Source: Escherichia phage vB_EcoM-Pr121LW. From it: DNA of 64,000 nt. Under the pieces are notes generated by a model, which was not told the DNA's origin, made no database searches, and was given only the letters and a program-made list of their open reading frames with translations. This document shows, piece by piece, positions 3,583 through 46,148 of the stretch; within the stretch, counting starts at the first letter, position 1, and the number at the start of each line of letters is the position of its first letter. Where the stretch lies: sequence record MH752840.1, one strand, 5' to 3'. Made by a program: the position numbers and the translations under genes.

Positions 3583-3737
3583 TACTGCGCCCCTTTGGTA
3601 ATAATACTGTATGTAAAACTTTAACCAGAGATGTGAATAACGCCCCAAAACACACCGATAGCGCTAAAACAGACAAGGCCATCATTAAAGCTTCAGTAAA
3701 ATCAGTCACTCCTCACCTCTTGTTAGTCACTATACTG

Positions 3738-27739: not shown

Positions 27740-27767
27740 AAAAGGAAAAGGGAGGCGCAAGCCTCCC
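27740..27767 (-). terminator. rho-independent terminator (minus strand)
   Basis: GGGAGGC-GCAA-GCCTCCC hairpin followed on minus strand by TTTTCCTTTT. Confidence 0.5.
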
Positions 27768-27775
27768 TATAATTG

Positions 27776-28759
27776 TTAGATTATCTGAATCAGGGTGTTT
27801 TTCATTTCTTCTCTGGTACGGATGTTGTTACGGTCACGAACAACAGATCCACAACCTTCACAGCGGTATGTTTTAAATGCACTCAGCTGAGTATATGCCA
27901 AAGCTTCTTCCTCGTGAAAGTGTTCTCCACCACAGCGTGGGCAACGAACCTTTGGCTCCTCGTCTTGGTAGTACAATGACATGTTTGGGTGCTGCTTAGC
28001 AAACGGGCGAGCCAGCAAATACAGTCCTTCCAGAGACAGGATATCACCAACATTATACTCTCGCATCTGTTTAAATGCCTCAAGATCGCCATGGACACAC
28101 TTGATCCACATTTCAAATGTGTGATCAATCAGTTTCTGTCGGGCCAGTTGGAAGTATTTGCATGCATACTCCAAAGTGTTTGCATTCAAACGGAATGCCT
28201 TCTTGATCATTTTAAGGGTGTCGACCTCTTTGTAAGGGCTTGTTGGGGGCAACCCGTGAAATGCAAATCGTTGGTTGGCCCACCCGCAGTCAAAACCTGA
28301 ATTGTGGGCTACTGCGACATCGCATTTATCCAGATAATACCACAAATCCTGAATCAATTCGAGATCATTGTGAATATCTTCATCCCACATTTTGTAATCT
28401 GGAAGAGCGCAGTCAACCACACTAGGGCTGTCTAACCACTTACCTGCGAAAGTTAGCATATAGGGCATAACTTCAATACCGCAGGTTTGAATGTTGGTCT
28501 TATAGTGCCCAAAGAACCAGCCGTTTGTTGGGGATGTCTCTGTATCATACACCCAAACTTTAGCACCTTTGTGCTCTTCAAGGAAGCGCTCCGTTGCTTC
28601 TCCTACAATCTCTGACATATTATCTTGTGCACGTTTAAGCTGTAGTCGGATCCAGCTCTCACGTGACTCACGGCCTAAAAATTCACGAGCAATTTGTCTA
28701 TTAGTGTATCCCTGTTGCTTTAGTGTTAAAATTTGCTCAAGAGTTAACTTTGTCATCAT
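27776..28759 (-). CDS. DnaQ-like 3'-5' exonuclease with N-terminal HTH and C-terminal zinc ribbon
   Basis: VYDTETS (Exo I), AHNSGFDCGW (Exo II), C-terminal CPRCGG...CEGCG. Confidence 0.55.
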   Translation of the reverse strand: MMTKLTLEQILTLKQQGYTNRQIAREFLGRESRESWIRLQLKRAQDNMSEIVGEATERFLEEHKGAKVWVYDTETSPTNGWFFGHYKTNIQTCGIEVMPYMLTFAGKWLDSPSVVDCALPDYKMWDEDIHNDLELIQDLWYYLDKCDVAVAHNSGFDCGWANQRFAFHGLPPTSPYKEVDTLKMIKKAFRLNANTLEYACKYFQLARQKLIDHTFEMWIKCVHGDLEAFKQMREYNVGDILSLEGLYLLARPFAKQHPNMSLYYQDEEPKVRCPRCGGEHFHEEEALAYTQLSAFKTYRCEGCGSVVRDRNNIRTREEMKNTLIQII

Positions 28760-28771
28760 CGTTAAGATTCC

Positions 28772-28993
28772 TTAGTAAAACTGAAGAATGTCTTTTAAAG
28801 CGAAGTCACGATATTCGCCCTTGTCTACATCGAAGGCACGCATCAACCACTGCTCTTCTTTATGATACTCTGTAGAGCCAAACCATAAATTAGGCTCAGT
28901 AACGCAGCGATCTGCAACAACACCTTTCCAGTTACGGTATTTCATCCTGATCAGGACTGAGTCGCAAGGATTGAATACCTTTTTCATCCCCAT
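28772..28993 (-). CDS. hypothetical small protein
   Basis: ORF. Confidence 0.3.
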   Translation of the reverse strand: MGMKKVFNPCDSVLIRMKYRNWKGVVADRCVTEPNLWFGSTEYHKEEQWLMRAFDVDKGEYRDFALKDILQFY

Positions 28994-29537
28994 AGAAATC
29001 TCTCTCCTCAGTTTTCTTTATAAACTCCTGCATGTAGAACTCAATAGCCTCATGCTTGGTGCACTCCGGATTAATGACAAGATTGAGATCTGATTCTGCT
29101 CGTGCAATAATCGTAGCTTTAGAGCATCTCCTCAAGAACTTTGTCATATCATCTCTGTAGTTTTTGTGGAGTGGGAAGTCGCTGTAGTCTTTCTCCAAAT
29201 AGTCAGCCATCCGGCGCAACGCCTCTGATAAACTGCAATCTGTATACTCGTTACAGTATTTCATCCAGTATTTAAGCACATACCCCTCAAAGGTATTAGT
29301 GCATTGAGACAAAACACCCCTGCAACGACCAGTCAGATGATCATGATCTAAACAAGGCTTACGAAGTGGCTCGCACAAGATCGGATCAAGACCATCCTGC
29401 TCCTCTGACAATTCTTTTCGAAAGTTGGCTATGTCCTTAGAATCTTTTAACCACCCGTTATGAACTGGGGCTTTGACAGCTTTCTTTCTTATTTTACGCT
29501 TTGCGATAATCCCTCCAGATGAGCCCTGCCTATCCAA
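28932..29537 (-). CDS. recombination endonuclease VII-like
   Basis: CEPLRKPCLDHDHLTGRCRGVLSQCTN matches the Endo VII zinc/active-site signature. Confidence 0.7.
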   Translation of the reverse strand: MDRQGSSGGIIAKRKIRKKAVKAPVHNGWLKDSKDIANFRKELSEEQDGLDPILCEPLRKPCLDHDHLTGRCRGVLSQCTNTFEGYVLKYWMKYCNEYTDCSLSEALRRMADYLEKDYSDFPLHKNYRDDMTKFLRRCSKATIIARAESDLNLVINPECTKHEAIEFYMQEFIKKTEERDFYGDEKGIQSLRLSPDQDEIP

Positions 29538-30118
29538 TAAGCATCTGCGAGATCGGCCTTACCTTGTACCAAATTGATCCCGTCTAGGAACCCAGGTTCA
29601 GATACTTCGCAGGCCTTAACCATCAACTTTTTATCCATTGTAACAGGTTTCTTCACAGTATGCTCTTTACCTGTCTTTTTGTCAAGCTTTTTCTTCTCCT
29701 CAAAAGCAAGTTCTTCAGGAAGATGACTACGAGCAAACTTTTTGGCAGTTGTTGGTGTCACTGTGTGGACCTTAAACAGGCCGTCATTTGCACAATCAGC
29801 TAAGGCATCCCAAAGCATAATTTCAAGACCGTAAAACAACCCGGCCAGTTCACGTGTGGCATCCCCGCGTGATCCAAAGGAAAGCCCTTCCATAACCACG
29901 GTGTCAACTCCGTGCGTGTGGATATAATATCTGACCTGTTTGCAGATCCAGTCAATACGCTCAGCAGCTGTTGCAAAAGAAACCGTCCCTGGTTTCTTTT
30001 CTTTTGCAGATGAGCTTTGAGTTCGTAACACAACCTTATGAACAGGCTTTCCATCGTCCCATACAACGCAGGCTGTGTGGGTAAGAGACTGATCTATAGA
30101 CAGCAGTCTTTCTCTCAT
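29489..30118 (-). CDS. RuvC-like Holliday junction resolvase (phage type)
   Basis: LSIDQSLTHTACVVWDDG N-terminus, VMEGLSF, DLADAYWIGRA consistent with RNase-H-fold resolvase. Confidence 0.45.
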   Translation of the reverse strand: MRERLLSIDQSLTHTACVVWDDGKPVHKVVLRTQSSSAKEKKPGTVSFATAAERIDWICKQVRYYIHTHGVDTVVMEGLSFGSRGDATRELAGLFYGLEIMLWDALADCANDGLFKVHTVTPTTAKKFARSHLPEELAFEEKKKLDKKTGKEHTVKKPVTMDKKLMVKACEVSEPGFLDGINLVQGKADLADAYWIGRAHLEGLSQSVK

Positions 30119-30441
30119 ACTGTTTCCTCTTCATCTAGGGAATAAGCTTTGTCTTTGAACAGCACAAGAGAGCAAAGCTTAACGTCTGTTTCCACGCTGG
30201 TAAACATGCATAGCCGCTCGCCCTCAATCAGCTCACAATCCTCTTTTAACACAGCAGACCATACACGATCATCTGCGTAATCATCAGTATACAAGATGTA
30301 TGCAATAGTGTCATCTTCATACAACCGCCACATACCTGTGGCAACAATAAATGTATTTTTTGTTTTAATGGTCCCTGTTGTATGATCATCCTCAAAAACA
30401 GCTTCCATAATTGCACTATCTACAGAATTTTTAGTCATCAA
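30115..30441 (-). CDS. hypothetical protein
   Basis: ORF. Confidence 0.35.
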   Translation of the reverse strand: MMTKNSVDSAIMEAVFEDDHTTGTIKTKNTFIVATGMWRLYEDDTIAYILYTDDYADDRVWSAVLKEDCELIEGERLCMFTSVETDVKLCSLVLFKDKAYSLDEEETV

Positions 30442-31577
30442 ATTGCTCCAACATTTCTAAGAACGTTAACAAGTTTTGTTTGATCATTGAATGTTCGCTT
30501 CATATACAAACAGTCAAAAATTATACTCATCCATTGACCTACGGAAATTCTACGATCAATACCATTGAAGTCAGTATACTTAACAACACCTTTCGGGAAC
30601 CACTTCTTGTACTGATCAATAATAGCCACCCACATCTCTTTTGGAGTGCTGCACTGAGACAGCAGGTAGAATGCTGAGGCATCCCCGAACTTACCTTTAC
30701 CGATAAGTCCTTGATACGGCTTGATATTGTCAGCAGAGTCACCACACAGCATTTGGTATCCGAAGAACAGCATTCCGTAACCACCAACCTCTCCATTAGG
30801 CTTCATGAAGATGTTCCCCATACCGTTATCGATCAGCATAGGGGTTTCCCTTACAAAATCTCCCTTATCGTTTCGCATAGGATCGAACACAAGCCCCGGT
30901 AGTGTTCTTTGGTCCTTATCAATAGAGATAATAAACTTGTTGAACTTACCTGTTTTTTGGTAGTGGTTCCAACCTTCAAATTGCTGGATAGCTAACCAGT
31001 CGTCAGCCTCGATACCGTTGATCACTTGAGCATTATACTGCTTTTGGAGATACTGTCTTGCATCTCCAAGCAGCAGTGGTCGAAGGGTATTGTTACGGTT
31101 GGCTTTGTATCTTTCCGGCATTGGAAGATCTAGTCTGAAGTTACCTGTGCCTCCCAACACCCCGACACATCGCTCCTCCGGAATACCAAGATAGTTAAGA
31201 ACTGCATTTGCCTTACATTTTATTGTGTGCAAGCAGTTCTCTACTGGGTCAGGTGTTTGGATATCCAAGACATCAAAATCTTCACGTGTCCACGGAATAA
31301 ACTCCTTACCAGACTTTTTACATGCGGCTTCACGGTTGGTATTCTCAGCTTTTAACCAACCACCAACGGTGTTCTTCTGCCGACCCCAGAACTCTGTTCG
31401 TGTTTTAAACATCTTCTTACGTCCGGAGGCTTTGTGTGTTACCTCAATTGTCCTTTTTTCACAACTTGCCGCAGCTTGATATGCAACCTGGTCGAAGTCA
31501 TAATAAACTATAGCGTCAGGTTCGAGAAGATCAGCAAGACAATCTACAGATTCAATAAGTGGATATTCTCTACTCAA
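30438..31577 (-). CDS. 5'-3' exonuclease / flap endonuclease (FEN / RNase H family)
   Basis: GIEADDWLA and LCGDSADNIKPYQG (H3TH) motifs. Confidence 0.7.
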   Translation of the reverse strand: MSREYPLIESVDCLADLLEPDAIVYYDFDQVAYQAAASCEKRTIEVTHKASGRKKMFKTRTEFWGRQKNTVGGWLKAENTNREAACKKSGKEFIPWTREDFDVLDIQTPDPVENCLHTIKCKANAVLNYLGIPEERCVGVLGGTGNFRLDLPMPERYKANRNNTLRPLLLGDARQYLQKQYNAQVINGIEADDWLAIQQFEGWNHYQKTGKFNKFIISIDKDQRTLPGLVFDPMRNDKGDFVRETPMLIDNGMGNIFMKPNGEVGGYGMLFFGYQMLCGDSADNIKPYQGLIGKGKFGDASAFYLLSQCSTPKEMWVAIIDQYKKWFPKGVVKYTDFNGIDRRISVGQWMSIIFDCLYMKRTFNDQTKLVNVLRNVGAI

Positions 31578-31878: not shown

Positions 31879-31937
31879 ACCTAGTTCTCCTAGTTAATAA
31901 ATAGTTAACTGATAATATCAGATCAGAGACTCATTTG

Positions 31938-32231
31938 TCAAGACTTTTTAGTCTTTCTTGGAGAGCTTTTTGTTGATCTTTTTCTTTTGTGGTAAATTCC
32001 AAGTGCAGCATTTTCTTGGGCACACGTTTTAACGGTTTTTAGATCAGAGCTTTCAGCTTTAGGTAGATTAAGCTCCCACCAACCCAACCAGTAAAGCTCT
32101 GATTCCGACAGCTGCTCAGATTCAGACTTCCGATACAAGGCTTGCATACCTCTGATGATATCGTCCAAAGGTGTATCGAATACAAAAGCTGTCTTATCAA
32201 ATTTCTCTTTTACAGGTTTCTTAGCCATCAA
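31938..32231 (-). CDS. hypothetical protein with basic C-terminus
   Basis: ORF. Confidence 0.3.
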   Translation of the reverse strand: MMAKKPVKEKFDKTAFVFDTPLDDIIRGMQALYRKSESEQLSESELYWLGWWELNLPKAESSDLKTVKTCAQENAALGIYHKRKRSTKSSPRKTKKS

Positions 32232-42236: not shown

Positions 42237-42311
42237 GCCCTGTTAGCTTAGTGGATAAAGCAGCGGCCTTCTAAGCCGTTGACACTGGTTCGAGTCCAGT
42301 ACGGGGTGCCA
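42237..42311 (+). tRNA. tRNA-Arg (anticodon TCT)
   Basis: Manual cloverleaf: 7-bp acceptor stem, D-stem GCTT/AAGC, anticodon loop CTTCTAA, T-loop TTCGAGT, encoded CCA. Confidence 0.75.
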
Positions 42312-42442
42312 AGTTCTTTTTAATGTAGCTTACTTTAGCAGAGTAAATCTTCGGCAAGTGGCGGTAACCACTTTTACCGATACCTCATAGTTAGTGGTGA
42401 GAACACTAGCTATTTTAAAAAGAATTTAAATATTAGTATTTA

Positions 42443-42530
42443 GGTGAGTTAATTCCGTAGGGGTAGCGGGGCAGACTGTAAATCTGTTATCATTGCGATT
42501 CGGGTGGTTCGACTCCATCACTCACCACCA
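42443..42530 (+). tRNA. tRNA-Tyr (anticodon GTA), long variable arm
   Basis: Perfect 7-bp acceptor stem GGTGAGT/ACTCACC, anticodon arm GCAGA-CTGTAAA-TCTGT, T-loop TTCGACT, CCA; 88 nt. Confidence 0.7.
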
Positions 42531-42644
42531 AATTTATATTTTTAAATGCATAAATTATACAGATAATGGCATTGATATTTATCGTCGTTTATACTAGTCA
42601 CTAACTGCTCGAAAATCAGTGTCATTATCAGTATTGTTTATAAA

Positions 42645-42735
42645 AGAGGGTAGGGAGCAATGGTGCTCAAGCGGTCTTGAAAACCGTCCCGTTGAGGATG
42701 ACTCGATGATGGTTCGATTCCATTACCCTCTGCCA
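42645..42735 (+). tRNA. tRNA-Ser (anticodon TGA), long variable arm
   Basis: Perfect 7-bp acceptor stem AGAGGGT/ACCCTCT, anticodon loop CTTGAAA, T-loop TTCGATT, CCA; 91 nt. Confidence 0.7.
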
Positions 42736-42833
42736 TATTGTTGACCTTGTAATTAAGCGAAAGCCGGAAGCAGAACCGGATTATCAAATGTTACAGTCGT
42801 CATCGCCGACTAGCAACATTGTCAACATACTGA

Positions 42834-42932
42834 GCTAGGTAAGCCCTTTGGCAAGGGCGAGGATTTTTAATCCTGAAAATAGACGAGGTAGTCGTTGAAT
42901 ACATAGGTGGTTCGATTCCACCACCTAGCACC
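42834..42932 (+). tRNA. atypical tRNA-like gene (anticodon loop TTTTTAA, possibly Lys-TTT), ~30-nt extra region, no full CCA
   Basis: Acceptor GCTAGGT/ACCTAGC, D-arm GCCC-TTTGGCAA-GGGC, T-arm GGTGG-TTCGATT-CCACC are clean; anticodon stem and variable region are irregular. Confidence 0.35.
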
Positions 42933-42937
42933 TTTTT

Positions 42938-43013
42938 GCTGATGTAGCACAATTGGTAGTGCAATTGATTTGTAATCAATAGGTTGCAGGTTCAAGTCCT
43001 GCCATCAGCACCA
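42938..43013 (+). tRNA. tRNA-Thr (anticodon TGT)
   Basis: Acceptor GCTGATG/CATCAGC, D-stem GCAC/GTGC, anticodon arm ATTGA-TTTGTAA-TCAAT, T-loop TTCAAGT, CCA. Confidence 0.8.
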
Positions 43014-43014
43014 T

Positions 43015-43089
43015 GGCCCTGTAGCTGGAAGGTTCAAGCAAGCGACTCATAATCGCCAGACGGTGGTTCAATTCCACCCAGGGCCACCA
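43015..43089 (+). tRNA. tRNA-Met or tRNA-Ile2 (anticodon CAT), elongator type
   Basis: Acceptor GGCCCTG/CAGGGCC with G1-C72 pair, anticodon loop CTCATAA, T-arm GGTGG-TTCAATT-CCACC, CCA. Confidence 0.7.
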
Positions 43090-43100
43090 AATAGTAAATA

Positions 43101-43177
43101 CTCCGCGTAGCTCAGCTTGGTAGAGCGCCTGATTTGGGATCAGGAGGTCGAGTGTTCGAATCACTCCGTGGAGACCA
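43101..43177 (+). tRNA. tRNA-Pro (anticodon TGG)
   Basis: C1-G72 acceptor pair as in bacterial tRNA-Pro, D-stem GCTC/GAGC, anticodon arm CCTGA-TTTGGGA-TCAGG, T-loop TTCGAAT, CCA. Confidence 0.8.
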
Positions 43178-43997: not shown

Positions 43998-44281
43998 GAG
44001 TTGCTGCACTGTTTATTGTGTGCTTTTTATTATGCGGGTGTGCAACCAGCGTTGAGAGAGAATACAAGATTGACCCTCCTGATGTAGGAAGGTTGATTGT
44101 TAAACCCCCGGAAGGTGCCATGAAACCACCTGCTAAAGCTATGCCTTTGAAGAAAGGTGCGCCAGATGCAGTGAATTCTGGCATTATGAGGGATAATAAT
44201 CTGTCTTGTAGCAATGATAGAGCTAAATTGATCATTTTGCAAGACTATATTAGAACACTGTTTCCAAAGGAGAGAGGTTAA
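43994..44281 (+). CDS. o-spanin (Rz1-like) outer-membrane lipoprotein
   Basis: Signal peptide with lipobox-like LLCGCAT, proline-rich mature region; 4-nt overlap with previous gene. Confidence 0.5.
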   Translation: MRVAALFIVCFLLCGCATSVEREYKIDPPDVGRLIVKPPEGAMKPPAKAMPLKKGAPDAVNSGIMRDNNLSCSNDRAKLIILQDYIRTLFPKERG

Positions 44282-44706
44282 TGTCTAAGATTTACGGACC
44301 GTGTTCTGAAAAGCAGAAGATGATCCTCGAAAACGATGCAGATATTTTGGTAATCGGCGGTGCCGCAGGGTCTGGCAAGTCGTTCCTCTTGCAGTTGATG
44401 CCGCTTAAAATTATCGATGACCCCCACAGCTCTGTGGTTATGTTCCGAAGAACAACCCCACAGTTGGAAGGTGAGGGTGGACTATGGCCTAAAGCAGTAG
44501 CTATTTATAGCGATCTGCCTGAAAACATTAAGCCAAAGTTCAGAGAGAAGGATCATAAGTTCATTTTTCCACGGTTTGATCCGAACACTGGCAAGTGGGA
44601 TAGAAGCAAAAAGGGAGCTGTTGTAAAATACTGCCACATGGAGTATGTACAAGATAAGCTTAACCATCAAGGGCTTGAGTACACCATGGTTTGCTTCGAT
44701 GAGGGT
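44281..44706 (+). CDS. terminase large subunit, exon 1 (ATPase N-terminal part)
   Basis: Walker A GGAAGSGKS and Walker B MVCFDE; frame closes with TAA right at the intron start. Confidence 0.7.
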
Positions 44707-45026
44707 TAATTTGTAGCTCTCGTAAAACCTCCCTAATTGCGGGGAAATCTTTACTATTAATACCACCAACCTGTCATGGTAACATGATAGAGGCTTCGAA
44801 GAGAGATCGAAGGTATGGTAACAGTGTGTTAATTTAGATAATCCGCAGCGAAGCATCCGAGAGGATGAACGTTCAACGACTAGTCGAAAGACGTAGAATC
44901 AAGCGATTCGAAACGGGAGGGTAAGCGGTTGTTGTCGCTTATAAGATATAGTCTGGTCTGCATGGAGACATGCAGCTGCCTGAAAAATGGCGGGGCAAGA
45001 CTAGCGACCTTGCCCGAACATAGACG
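44707..45026 (+). ncRNA. group I self-splicing intron (ORF-less) in the terminase large subunit gene; boundaries approximate
   Basis: Conserved elements in order: P AATTGCGGGGAAA (~44737), Q AATCCGCAGC (~44842), R GTTCAACGACTAGTC (~44870), S AAGATATAGTC (~44940); intron begins GGT|TAATT like T4 td; no ORF inside. Confidence 0.65.
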
Positions 45027-46148
45027 ACACAATTCGAATGGGAGCAGATAGACTATCTGATGTCTCGTCTGCGATCTCAGTCAAAGTATCCATCAAGGAT
45101 GGTTATCAGCTGTAACCCTGATTCAGAACACATGCTTGCCAAACTGGTTAGATGGTGGTTGGACGATGAAGGGTATCCAGATCCGGAGAAATGTGGTAAG
45201 AAAAGATATTTTATCCGACGCGACGGTGAATTTATTTGGGGGGACTCTAAGGAGGAGTTGATAGAGAAATACACCACGGTTAACGGACTGGGTGTAGAGA
45301 TCAAGCCAAGACCGTTGTCATTCTCGTTCATAGGCGCAACAATATTCGATAATCCTGTCTGTTTGAGAGACAACCCAGAATACCTTGCTTTCCTCGAAGG
45401 TCTACCAGAGCTGGAAAAAGCTCAGCTTCTCCATGGTAACTGGTTTGCAAAGCCTGAGGGTGCAAACTATTTTCAAAGATCTTTCCTTCGTGATGCCGAT
45501 AGAGTACCCCTTGGATCAGTATCTTGCAGGGCATGGGATAAGGCAGGAACCGAGAGAACTTCTGGCAATAAATTTCCTGACTTTACTGCCAGTATTAAGG
45601 TAAGTAAAGATAGCGACGGCTTTTATTACCTGTCAGGGGATTATTGTCCTGAAAACGTGGATGACGGGAGGTATTCCACAGGTCTGGAAGGCAAGTTCTG
45701 TAAAAAGGCTGGTGAACGAGATGTGATCATCAGGAAACAGGCGCAGTTTGATGGTGATGATTGCATAATCGTATTCTCTGTGGACCCTGGTCAGGCAGGT
45801 AAGAGTGAGTTCTTAACCTCATCCAGATCCTTGCTCGCAGAAGGGTTCAGGGTTGAAGAAGACCCAATGCCTTCCAACAAGTCTAAACTGACAAGGTTCT
45901 CACCTTTTGCCAATCTTGCCCAACAAGGGATGGTGAGGATTGTAAAATCCAGTTTCCATCCTGATACTCTGGAAGCATTTCTGACCGAACTTGAAAAATT
46001 CAACGGGGAAAGATCAACATTTAACAGAAAAGACGACTGGGCTGACTGTGTAGCTTCTGCAATTAATTTCCTGGAGAAAGAGGAGGTAGCACTTCCTTGT
46101 GTGATTCCATCAATCTCATCACCTTCTATGTTCAAGCGTTTTATCTAG
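45027..46148 (+). CDS. terminase large subunit, exon 2 (nuclease domain); exon start uncertain within 45027-45060
   Basis: Frame open from 45024; 45027 follows a G and restores frame with exon 1; product size and position before the putative portal gene. Confidence 0.6.
   Translation, partial: TQFEWEQIDYLMSRLRSQSKYPSRMVISCNPDSEHMLAKLVRWWLDDEGYPDPEKCGKKRYFIRRDGEFIWGDSKEELIEKYTTVNGLGVEIKPRPLSFSFIGATIFDNPVCLRDNPEYLAFLEGLPELEKAQLLHGNWFAKPEGANYFQRSFLRDADRVPLGSVSCRAWDKAGTERTSGNKFPDFTASIKVSKDSDGFYYLSGDYCPENVDDGRYSTGLEGKFCKKAGERDVIIRKQAQFDGDDCIIVFSVDPGQAGKSEFLTSSRSLLAEGFRVEEDPMPSNKSKLTRFSPFANLAQQGMVRIVKSSFHPDTLEAFLTELEKFNGERSTFNRKDDWADCVASAINFLEKEEVALPCVIPSISSPSMFKRFI

Follow-up and report, generated by a model that had tools for sequence, protein, structure and literature searches.

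Why would a phage encode two junction-cutting nucleases side by side? The question is raised by a stretch of 64,000 nucleotides of Escherichia phage vB_EcoM-Pr121LW (MH752840.1; the whole stretch is called the window below). Here an original prediction, made from the letters alone, had recognized an endonuclease VII-type gene overlapping by 49 nt a candidate gene for a RuvC-like resolvase of RNase H fold, and had taken the tandem as unusual and as a hint at specialised roles. Both open reading frames (ORFs) lie on the minus strand at the positions it gave. Our analysis suggests that these are probably two structure-specific nucleases of different folds that are transcribed together and divide their roles, with endonuclease VII (EndoVII) translated from a near-cognate AUC codon. 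Both genes are ordinary, already annotated members of two classical resolvase families and reveal no new system. A whole phage subfamily that keeps two unrelated junction-cutting enzymes adjacent is, on the other hand, a natural system in which to ask why there are two and what their substrate ranges are.

The 1.8 kb around both nuclease genes is 99.9% identical to Escherichia phage Murica (Vequintavirus, rV5-like myoviruses), and identity reaches at least 95% in 116 of the 120 matching phage records, the remaining four standing at 90-95%. Elsewhere the window is 97-98% identical to Murica and carries an extra 321-nt insertion. Because this insertion is missing from Murica's continuous terminase gene, the window phage is closely related to Murica but distinct from it. 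The Murica GenBank record has the two nuclease genes at the same coordinates under the names 'RNaseH' and 'recombination endonuclease', the second gene without a ribosome-binding site.

Two nucleases of different folds

Profile and model evidence identifies the downstream gene as one predicted to encode a full-length T4-type endonuclease VII, with a His-Me finger and a C-terminal helical domain. The protein scores 31.6 bits against Pfam PF02945 (cut-off 23.6) and matches PHROG 423 with E=6.4e-37. Its alignment to T4 EndoVII (PDB 1e7d, E=3e-4) pairs window residues 61-167 with T4 residues 37-147 and so includes the C-terminal domain, beyond the nuclease core. An AlphaFold2 (AF2) model built on 32 homologues reached a mean predicted local distance difference test score (pLDDT) of 88.9, and a Foldseek search of the whole PDB with this model returned T4 EndoVII as the sole match (best entry 2qnf, 157 aligned columns, template modelling (TM) score 0.75 normalised to T4). 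The entire 157-residue structure of T4 endonuclease VII (gp49; PDB 1en7, 2qnc, 2qnf) thereby superposes on the window model, at a sequence identity of 22-23%. D64, H65, H67, N81 and E84 (numbered in the 201-residue form) are invariant across the 32 homologues and against T4, where the equivalent catalytic residues are D40/H41/H43/N62/E65. The predicted CLDHDH...TG..RG...CN signature is present, except for its end: it reads CLDHDHLTGRCRGVLSQCTN and closes with C-T-N in place of CN. In T4 EndoVII the C-terminal helical domain forms a domain-swapped dimer. The window protein and its clade differ from T4 in a basic, low-confidence N-terminal tail, AKRKIRKKAVKAP, which T4 lacks; the window protein further differs in an unconserved C-terminal extension of ~20 residues and in its proposed start, a conserved AUC within the upstream gene, where T4 has another arrangement.

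The upstream gene is predicted, likewise by profile and model, to encode a RuvC-family nuclease of RNase H fold with D-E-D-D carboxylates. Its product matches PHROG 159 ('RuvC-like Holliday junction resolvase') with E=5.5e-39, and the Pfam RuvC family PF02075 is matched by 4 of 32 homologues (best E=1.8e-6); a PDB search with the family profile gave only a weak match, to D. radiodurans RuvC (E=0.56). With the AF2 model (pLDDT 92.1, predicted TM score 0.88) as query, Foldseek ranks 1-12 in the PDB are all RuvC resolvases, at TM scores of 0.71-0.77 normalised to the target. They come from Thermus, Deinococcus, Pseudomonas, E. coli and phage bIL67 and include 4ld0 (E=5e-8, target-normalised TM score 0.74), 4ktw (phage bIL67) and 1hjr (E. 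coli). The protein shares the RNase-H-like fold and the order of secondary structures with the RuvC/bIL67 RuvC class (RuvC/Cce1/Ydc2/A22; PF02075), at only 12-18% identity to solved RuvC structures.

Four acidic residues, D9, E77, D189 and D192, are invariant in five divergent phages; among the 32 homologues E77 is invariant and each of the other three is at least 90% conserved. D9 closes beta1, E77 closes beta4, and D189 and D192 form a D-x-x-D pair in the last helix. The catalytic carboxylates are D7/E66/D138/D141 in E. coli RuvC and D8/E71/D145/D149 in bIL67 RuvC (PMC3864405), and the D-x-x-D spacing of E. coli D138/D141 is identical to that of D189/D192. An hhalign comparison of the family with E. 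coli RuvC (using an approximate query sequence) aligned 35 columns around E77/E66 at low probability. As the alignment covers only this region, equivalence of the other carboxylates rests on motif position and fold match. Both assignments of the original prediction are therefore borne out: a T4-type EndoVII on profile, fold and catalytic residues, and a RuvC-like protein on its PHROG match, its fold match and its acidic residues.

The window protein is ~50 residues longer than canonical RuvC and has an extra strand after beta3 and a Lys-rich beta-hairpin of ~30 residues (about 131-160) between alphaC and alphaD, which is missing in the shortest homologues. Phage RuvC proteins cut forks besides Holliday junctions by means of extra positive charge in the alphaC-alphaD region, and in bIL67 RuvC such added charge widens the substrate range (PMC3864405). 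The region is remodelled and positively charged in bIL67 RuvC and in the window protein alike.

A conserved, probable near-cognate start codon

The longest EndoVII ORF, 28932..29537, encodes 201 residues from a TTG and overlaps the RuvC-like gene by 49 nt. The overlap of the original prediction holds for this ORF; the likelier value is 19 nt. From the comparison of related genomes, the EndoVII start is most likely the ATC at 29507-29505, and the 49-nt overlap is probably an annotation artefact. GGAGG-N4-ATC (GGGGG in Henunavirus) is the only EndoVII initiation signal conserved across the four genera Vequintavirus, Seunavirus, Mydovirus and Henunavirus. The ATC is invariant in eight aligned genomes of these genera, L019 has ATA, and the distant L031 has GGAGG-N6-ATC directly following an in-frame stop. 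The pattern of GGAGG or GGGGG, four to six bases and a start codon recurs in all genera examined. Measured from the end of the RuvC stop codon, the ATC lies at -19, -16, -10 or -1; with this varying distance it tracks the Shine-Dalgarno (SD) sequence and not the stop. In outgroups the homologous column holds a canonical start: H101, L032 and ABPH49 (GGGGG-N5-ATG-GCC, 'MARR') have ATG, Certrevirus has either GTG (GGAGG-N6-GTG-GCA) or ATG, and Plateaulakevirus has TTG. Several database homologues begin with 'MAK' or 'MAR' exactly at the Murica 'IAKR' column, and P0062/64/80/81 have M there.

Two other explanations of the junction have to be weighed against the ATC. That translation begins at TTG 29537, as in the Murica record and the original prediction, is rather improbable. 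In Murica and rV5 this codon is the sole canonical start upstream of the conserved basic N-tail; moreover P0034, a 90%-identity cluster of 219 member sequences, is called at 201 residues, and P0035 (87% identity) has a similar N-terminus. No Shine-Dalgarno sequence was found upstream of this TTG, however, and the rV5 and PVP-SE1 annotators did not take it. L011, with a RuvC-like protein of 95% identity, differs by three substitutions in the stretch from TTG to SD. None of them alters the RuvC-like protein, but one, a GGC>GGT change in its frame, turns CAG into a TAG stop in the EndoVII frame three codons past the TTG; the constraint on this stretch is therefore that of RuvC coding alone. Seuna-, Mydo- and Henunavirus have TTT at this position or lack it. 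Outside Vequintavirus, where the TTG does not occur, the first canonical start comes 44-77 nt past the RuvC stop, either beyond the basic N-tail or within it. The second explanation, a RuvC-EndoVII fusion made by programmed -1 ribosomal frameshifting late in the RuvC-like gene, has a certain appeal: the EndoVII frame is -1 relative to RuvC and, in each of the four genera, reaches back into the RuvC-like gene for 37-70 nt without a stop; an A-run follows the GGAGG at a distance of 11-15 nt; and in Murica, PVP-SE1, LNA4 and KB57 an A_AAA run comes directly before the RuvC stop. A slippery X_XXY_YYZ heptamer is nevertheless missing in 10 of 11 genomes, L011 alone having one (GGGTTTA), and BIS47 and L019 show no slippery run whatsoever. 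The variable distance between ATC and RuvC stop also speaks against it, and so do the outgroups, where EndoVII is a separate gene starting from ATG, GTG or TTG or is set apart by an intervening gene. Neither protein search, with the RuvC-like protein or with EndoVII, found a fusion homologue of ~400 residues. The local RNA fold, in which a hairpin could occlude the SD, is no better than shuffled sequence (z=+1.0). On the non-conserved heptamer, the variable spacing, the separate outgroup genes and the missing fusion homologues, the frameshift was rejected as extremely improbable.

GenBank records disagree on the start of the homologous gene, which is TTG in Murica, ATT in rV5 and ATC in PVP-SE1, and downstream GTG starts give a truncated EndoVII in BIS47, KB57, Hena1 and ABPH49. 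Judged by the aligned signals, EndoVII is probably mis-started in several of these records. In ABPH49 (L066 2896) and in BIS47, KB57 and Hena1 (L008-L010), annotation from downstream codons costs 15-85 N-terminal residues. CR3 EndoVII is annotated from GTG 3706, and the GGAGG-N6-GTG at 3649 (L004) would encode the conserved basic tail. The start signal offers a correction for annotation pipelines. If the ATC start is true, automatic gene callers systematically truncate or mis-start the EndoVII gene, and the codon would join the few documented AUC starts that phages have conserved in evolution.

AUU near-cognate starts serve dosage control in E. coli infC and pcnB. In these genes and in EndoVII alike, a protein harmful in excess would be initiated at a low level, from an AUH codon behind a strong SD. 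The EndoVII site differs in using AUC or AUA, in lying within the 3' end of the preceding ORF, and in being predicted from sequence alone. AUC, AUA and AUU initiate in E. coli at about 0.02-3% of AUG (bioRxiv 10.1101/063800).

Conservation of the pair and possible division of labour

By gene order, the RuvC-like gene followed by EndoVII is a conserved trait of one large clade, the Vequintavirinae and allied myoviruses of 115-150 kb. The two genes follow each other on the same strand in Vequintavirus, Seunavirus (PVP-SE1, LNA4), Mydovirus (BIS47, KB57) and Henunavirus (Hena1), as well as in ABPH49 (an Acinetobacter member of Vequintavirinae), Shandongvirus H101 and uncultivated contigs. One extra gene lies between them in Certrevirus (CR3) and two small genes in Plateaulakevirus; the junction thus tolerates insertions in lineages with canonical EndoVII starts. 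The Certrevirus insertion, CR3_227, is a gene of 543 nt with no assigned function (L004 3162-3704), and the Plateaulakevirus insertion occupies L005 3052-3249. Of the 32 loci with a RuvC-like protein of 31% identity or more, a hidden Markov model scan found EndoVII just downstream in 30; the two exceptions are a contig ending ~170 nt past the RuvC-like gene and a 75-kb contig. Near more distant RuvC-like genes, including those of 70-77 kb phage contigs, EndoVII was not found within 4 kb. Among 50,697 phage records, 272 have a member of the RuvC-like subfamily and 807 an EndoVII relative. With this distribution the tandem is still lineage-restricted, and to that extent 'unusual' was apt; within the clade it is fixed and it is already known at annotation level, some GenBank records (MiataMamis, Mangalyan) naming a Holliday junction resolvase and an endonuclease VII. 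No paper discussing the pair was found in the literature on Vequintavirus resolvases and on phages with two Holliday junction resolvases; the Certrevirus and Septuagintavirus genome papers name EndoVII only.

How could the two enzymes share the work? EndoVII would be translated from the near-cognate AUC codon, and its initiation would depend on ribosomes finishing the RuvC-like gene; a promiscuous and potentially toxic nuclease would thus be kept low and tied to RuvC-like output. T4 EndoVII is reportedly associated with the portal and said to release stalled packaging. The RuvC-like dimer would resolve Holliday junctions and regressed forks during recombination-dependent replication, and EndoVII, as in T4, would clear concatemers of leftover branches (Y-junctions, heteroduplex loops, mismatches) that could otherwise block headful packaging. 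For T4 EndoVII, roles in mismatch repair and in branch removal for packaging are cited in two papers (PMC7344957, PMC11370258). A more specific proposal goes further and is more tentative, being one that we would not yet favour: the conserved AUC/AUA start in four Vequintavirinae genera might hard-wire EndoVII as a small fixed fraction of RuvC-like output, with the resolvases splitting replication-linked resolution and pre-packaging debranching between them. If true, the conserved SD-N4-ATC would be a concrete case of near-cognate initiation throttling a toxic nuclease.

A division of roles competes with two other accounts. The nucleases might be functionally redundant resolvases, for instance as insurance against host or competitor inhibitors, and some support comes from the fact that T4 EndoVII and phage RuvC proteins each cut Holliday junctions and other branched DNA (PMC3864405) and from the co-transcription predicted here. 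For a dispensable duplicate, though, it is unexpected that both are kept together in the same order while the proteins diverged to about 30% identity, and the differing initiation signals (ATG versus AUC) imply different dosage; we regard redundancy as unlikely, if somewhat less so than a start at TTG. Alternatively, the RuvC-like protein may be no junction resolvase at all, being some other RNase-H-fold nuclease, either an RNase H acting on RNA primers or a YqgF-like enzyme. Such a function would agree with the Murica name, with the missing direct Pfam RuvC match and with the 30-residue insert, which canonical RuvC does not have. It is very unlikely given the RuvC-type carboxylate layout (a Glu ending beta4 and D-x-x-D in the last helix) and the twelve best structural matches; the 50 fold matches listed include neither an RNase H nor a YqgF structure, the protein matches neither Pfam RNase_H nor YqgF, and two genes upstream the phage already has a FEN-type exonuclease for removing primers.

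Several observations nonetheless tell against a low-dosage EndoVII working beside a RuvC-type resolvase. The RuvC-like protein has no direct Pfam (E<=0.1), NCBIfam or PDB sequence match, so that its family assignment rests on PHROG, transitive homology and predicted structure. The T4 zinc site Cys23/Cys26/Cys58/Cys61 is not conserved in this EndoVII clade, the aligned window residues being D, L, S and T. Cysteines stand nearby in the window protein (C56, C62, C72, C79): besides those displaced by a single position there are two further ones. They differ between members of the clade, with three in PVP-SE1 and a single one in some homologues. Without the Cys4 site, the stability and specificity of this EndoVII may differ from those of T4. 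The stretch around the ATC is dual-coding, and coding constraint in both frames could explain part of its invariance; furthermore, Murica and rV5 do possess a TTG at -49 that could be used. That the two enzymes divide the work is plausible by analogy only, each protein's activity being a predicted one, and the placement of both genes in one operon speaks against their being transcribed at different times.

The operon and other features of the window

As read from gene layout, the RuvC-like and EndoVII genes lie within an operon-like block of nucleases of replication/recombination type and are predicted to be co-transcribed (Table 1). The gene order is small protein, FEN/PIN-type exonuclease, 108-aa protein, RuvC-like protein, EndoVII, ~72-aa protein and DnaQ-like exonuclease, and an HNH endonuclease gene is present farther upstream. 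The upstream junctions, including that between the 108-aa gene and the RuvC-like gene, are 4-nt overlaps of ATGA type, which is consistent with coupled translation along the operon.

Table 1. Coordinates of the nuclease operon and its signals in the window (in order of transcription; codons are given 5' to 3' on the coding strand)
Feature	Position	Strand	Remarks
Sigma-70-like promoter candidate	31912..31941	-	TTGACA-18-TATTAT, 11/12 matches, with TG; consensus match only; upstream of operon
FEN/PIN-type 5'-3' exonuclease	30438..31577	-	PHROG 107 E=2.4e-71; GenBank 'exonuclease, contains PIN domain'
Conserved 108-aa protein, no assigned function	30115..30441	-	PHROG 7583 E=2e-54; directly upstream of RuvC-like gene
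RuvC-family nuclease (predicted), 209 aa, ATG start	29489..30118	-	PHROG 159
Predicted catalytic codons, RuvC-like	D9 30094-30092; E77 29890-29888; D189 29554-29552; D192 29545-29543	-	
TTG, start in Murica record, giving 49-nt overlap	29535..29537	-	no SD; probably not functional start
SD-like GGAGG	29512..29516	-	4 nt upstream of ATC; G55 G56 G58 G59 invariant columns
ATC, proposed near-cognate EndoVII start	29505..29507	-	19 nt inside RuvC-like 3' end, -1 frame
T4-type EndoVII (predicted), preferred model, 191 aa from ATC	28932..29507	-	Pfam PF02945, PHROG 423
Predicted catalytic codons, EndoVII	D 29348-29346; H 29345-29343; H 29339-29337; N 29297-29295; E 29288-29286	-	
Conserved 71-73-aa protein	28772..28993	-	PHROG 3715 E=2.6e-26; weak WYL/SH3-like similarity
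DnaQ-like 3'-5' exonuclease, C-terminal zinc ribbon	27776..28759	-	PHROG 403 E=8.9e-110; Pfam RNase_T just under cut-off; operon's last gene
Intrinsic-terminator-like hairpin ending operon	27749..27768	-	8-bp stem, 6 GC pairs, then T-run; Murica record has terminator here

Among the small neighbours, the 108-aa gene is syntenic in PVP-SE1, CR3, Hena1, BIS47, KB57 and ABPH49; in Vequintavirinae its neighbours are always the FEN-type exonuclease gene and the RuvC-like gene, each of which it overlaps by 4 nt. Its product matched no Pfam or NCBIfam family and could be an accessory factor of the nucleases. On the other side of the pair, the ~72-aa gene is 216 nt long in GenBank, with a ribosome-binding site, and the Pfam WYL matches of its product stay below cut-off. 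It overlaps the EndoVII 3' end by 56-62 nt (28932-28993). The overlapped EndoVII tail, the final ~20 residues, is unconserved and has a pLDDT of ~50; it may be a by-product of the overlap with the next gene and not a functional part of the enzyme.

A group I intron (RF00028, 84 bits, E=6e-20; Rfam match 44697-44975) was found within the gene for the large terminase subunit. It splits the gene into ORFs 44281..44709 and 45060..46148, and the 321-nt insertion missing in Murica spans 44706-45026. Twenty GenBank records labelled 'Campylobacter phage' (MG0656xx; host C. jejuni in 18), mostly unannotated, are 97-99% identical to the E. coli rV5-like phages here; probably the Campylobacter host is a labelling error or the sequences stem from contamination. 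Finally, a tRNA cluster on the plus strand (42237-43177) comprises Arg-TCT, Ser-TGA, Thr-TGT, Met-CAT and Pro-TGG, with an additional weak Rfam tRNA match at 42443-42527. The tRNA with the CAT anticodon is unlike an initiator because its G1:C72 is paired. A 99-nt tRNA-like gene at 42834-42932 is given a four-base anticodon by ARAGORN and is labelled 'tRNA-OTHER' in Murica.

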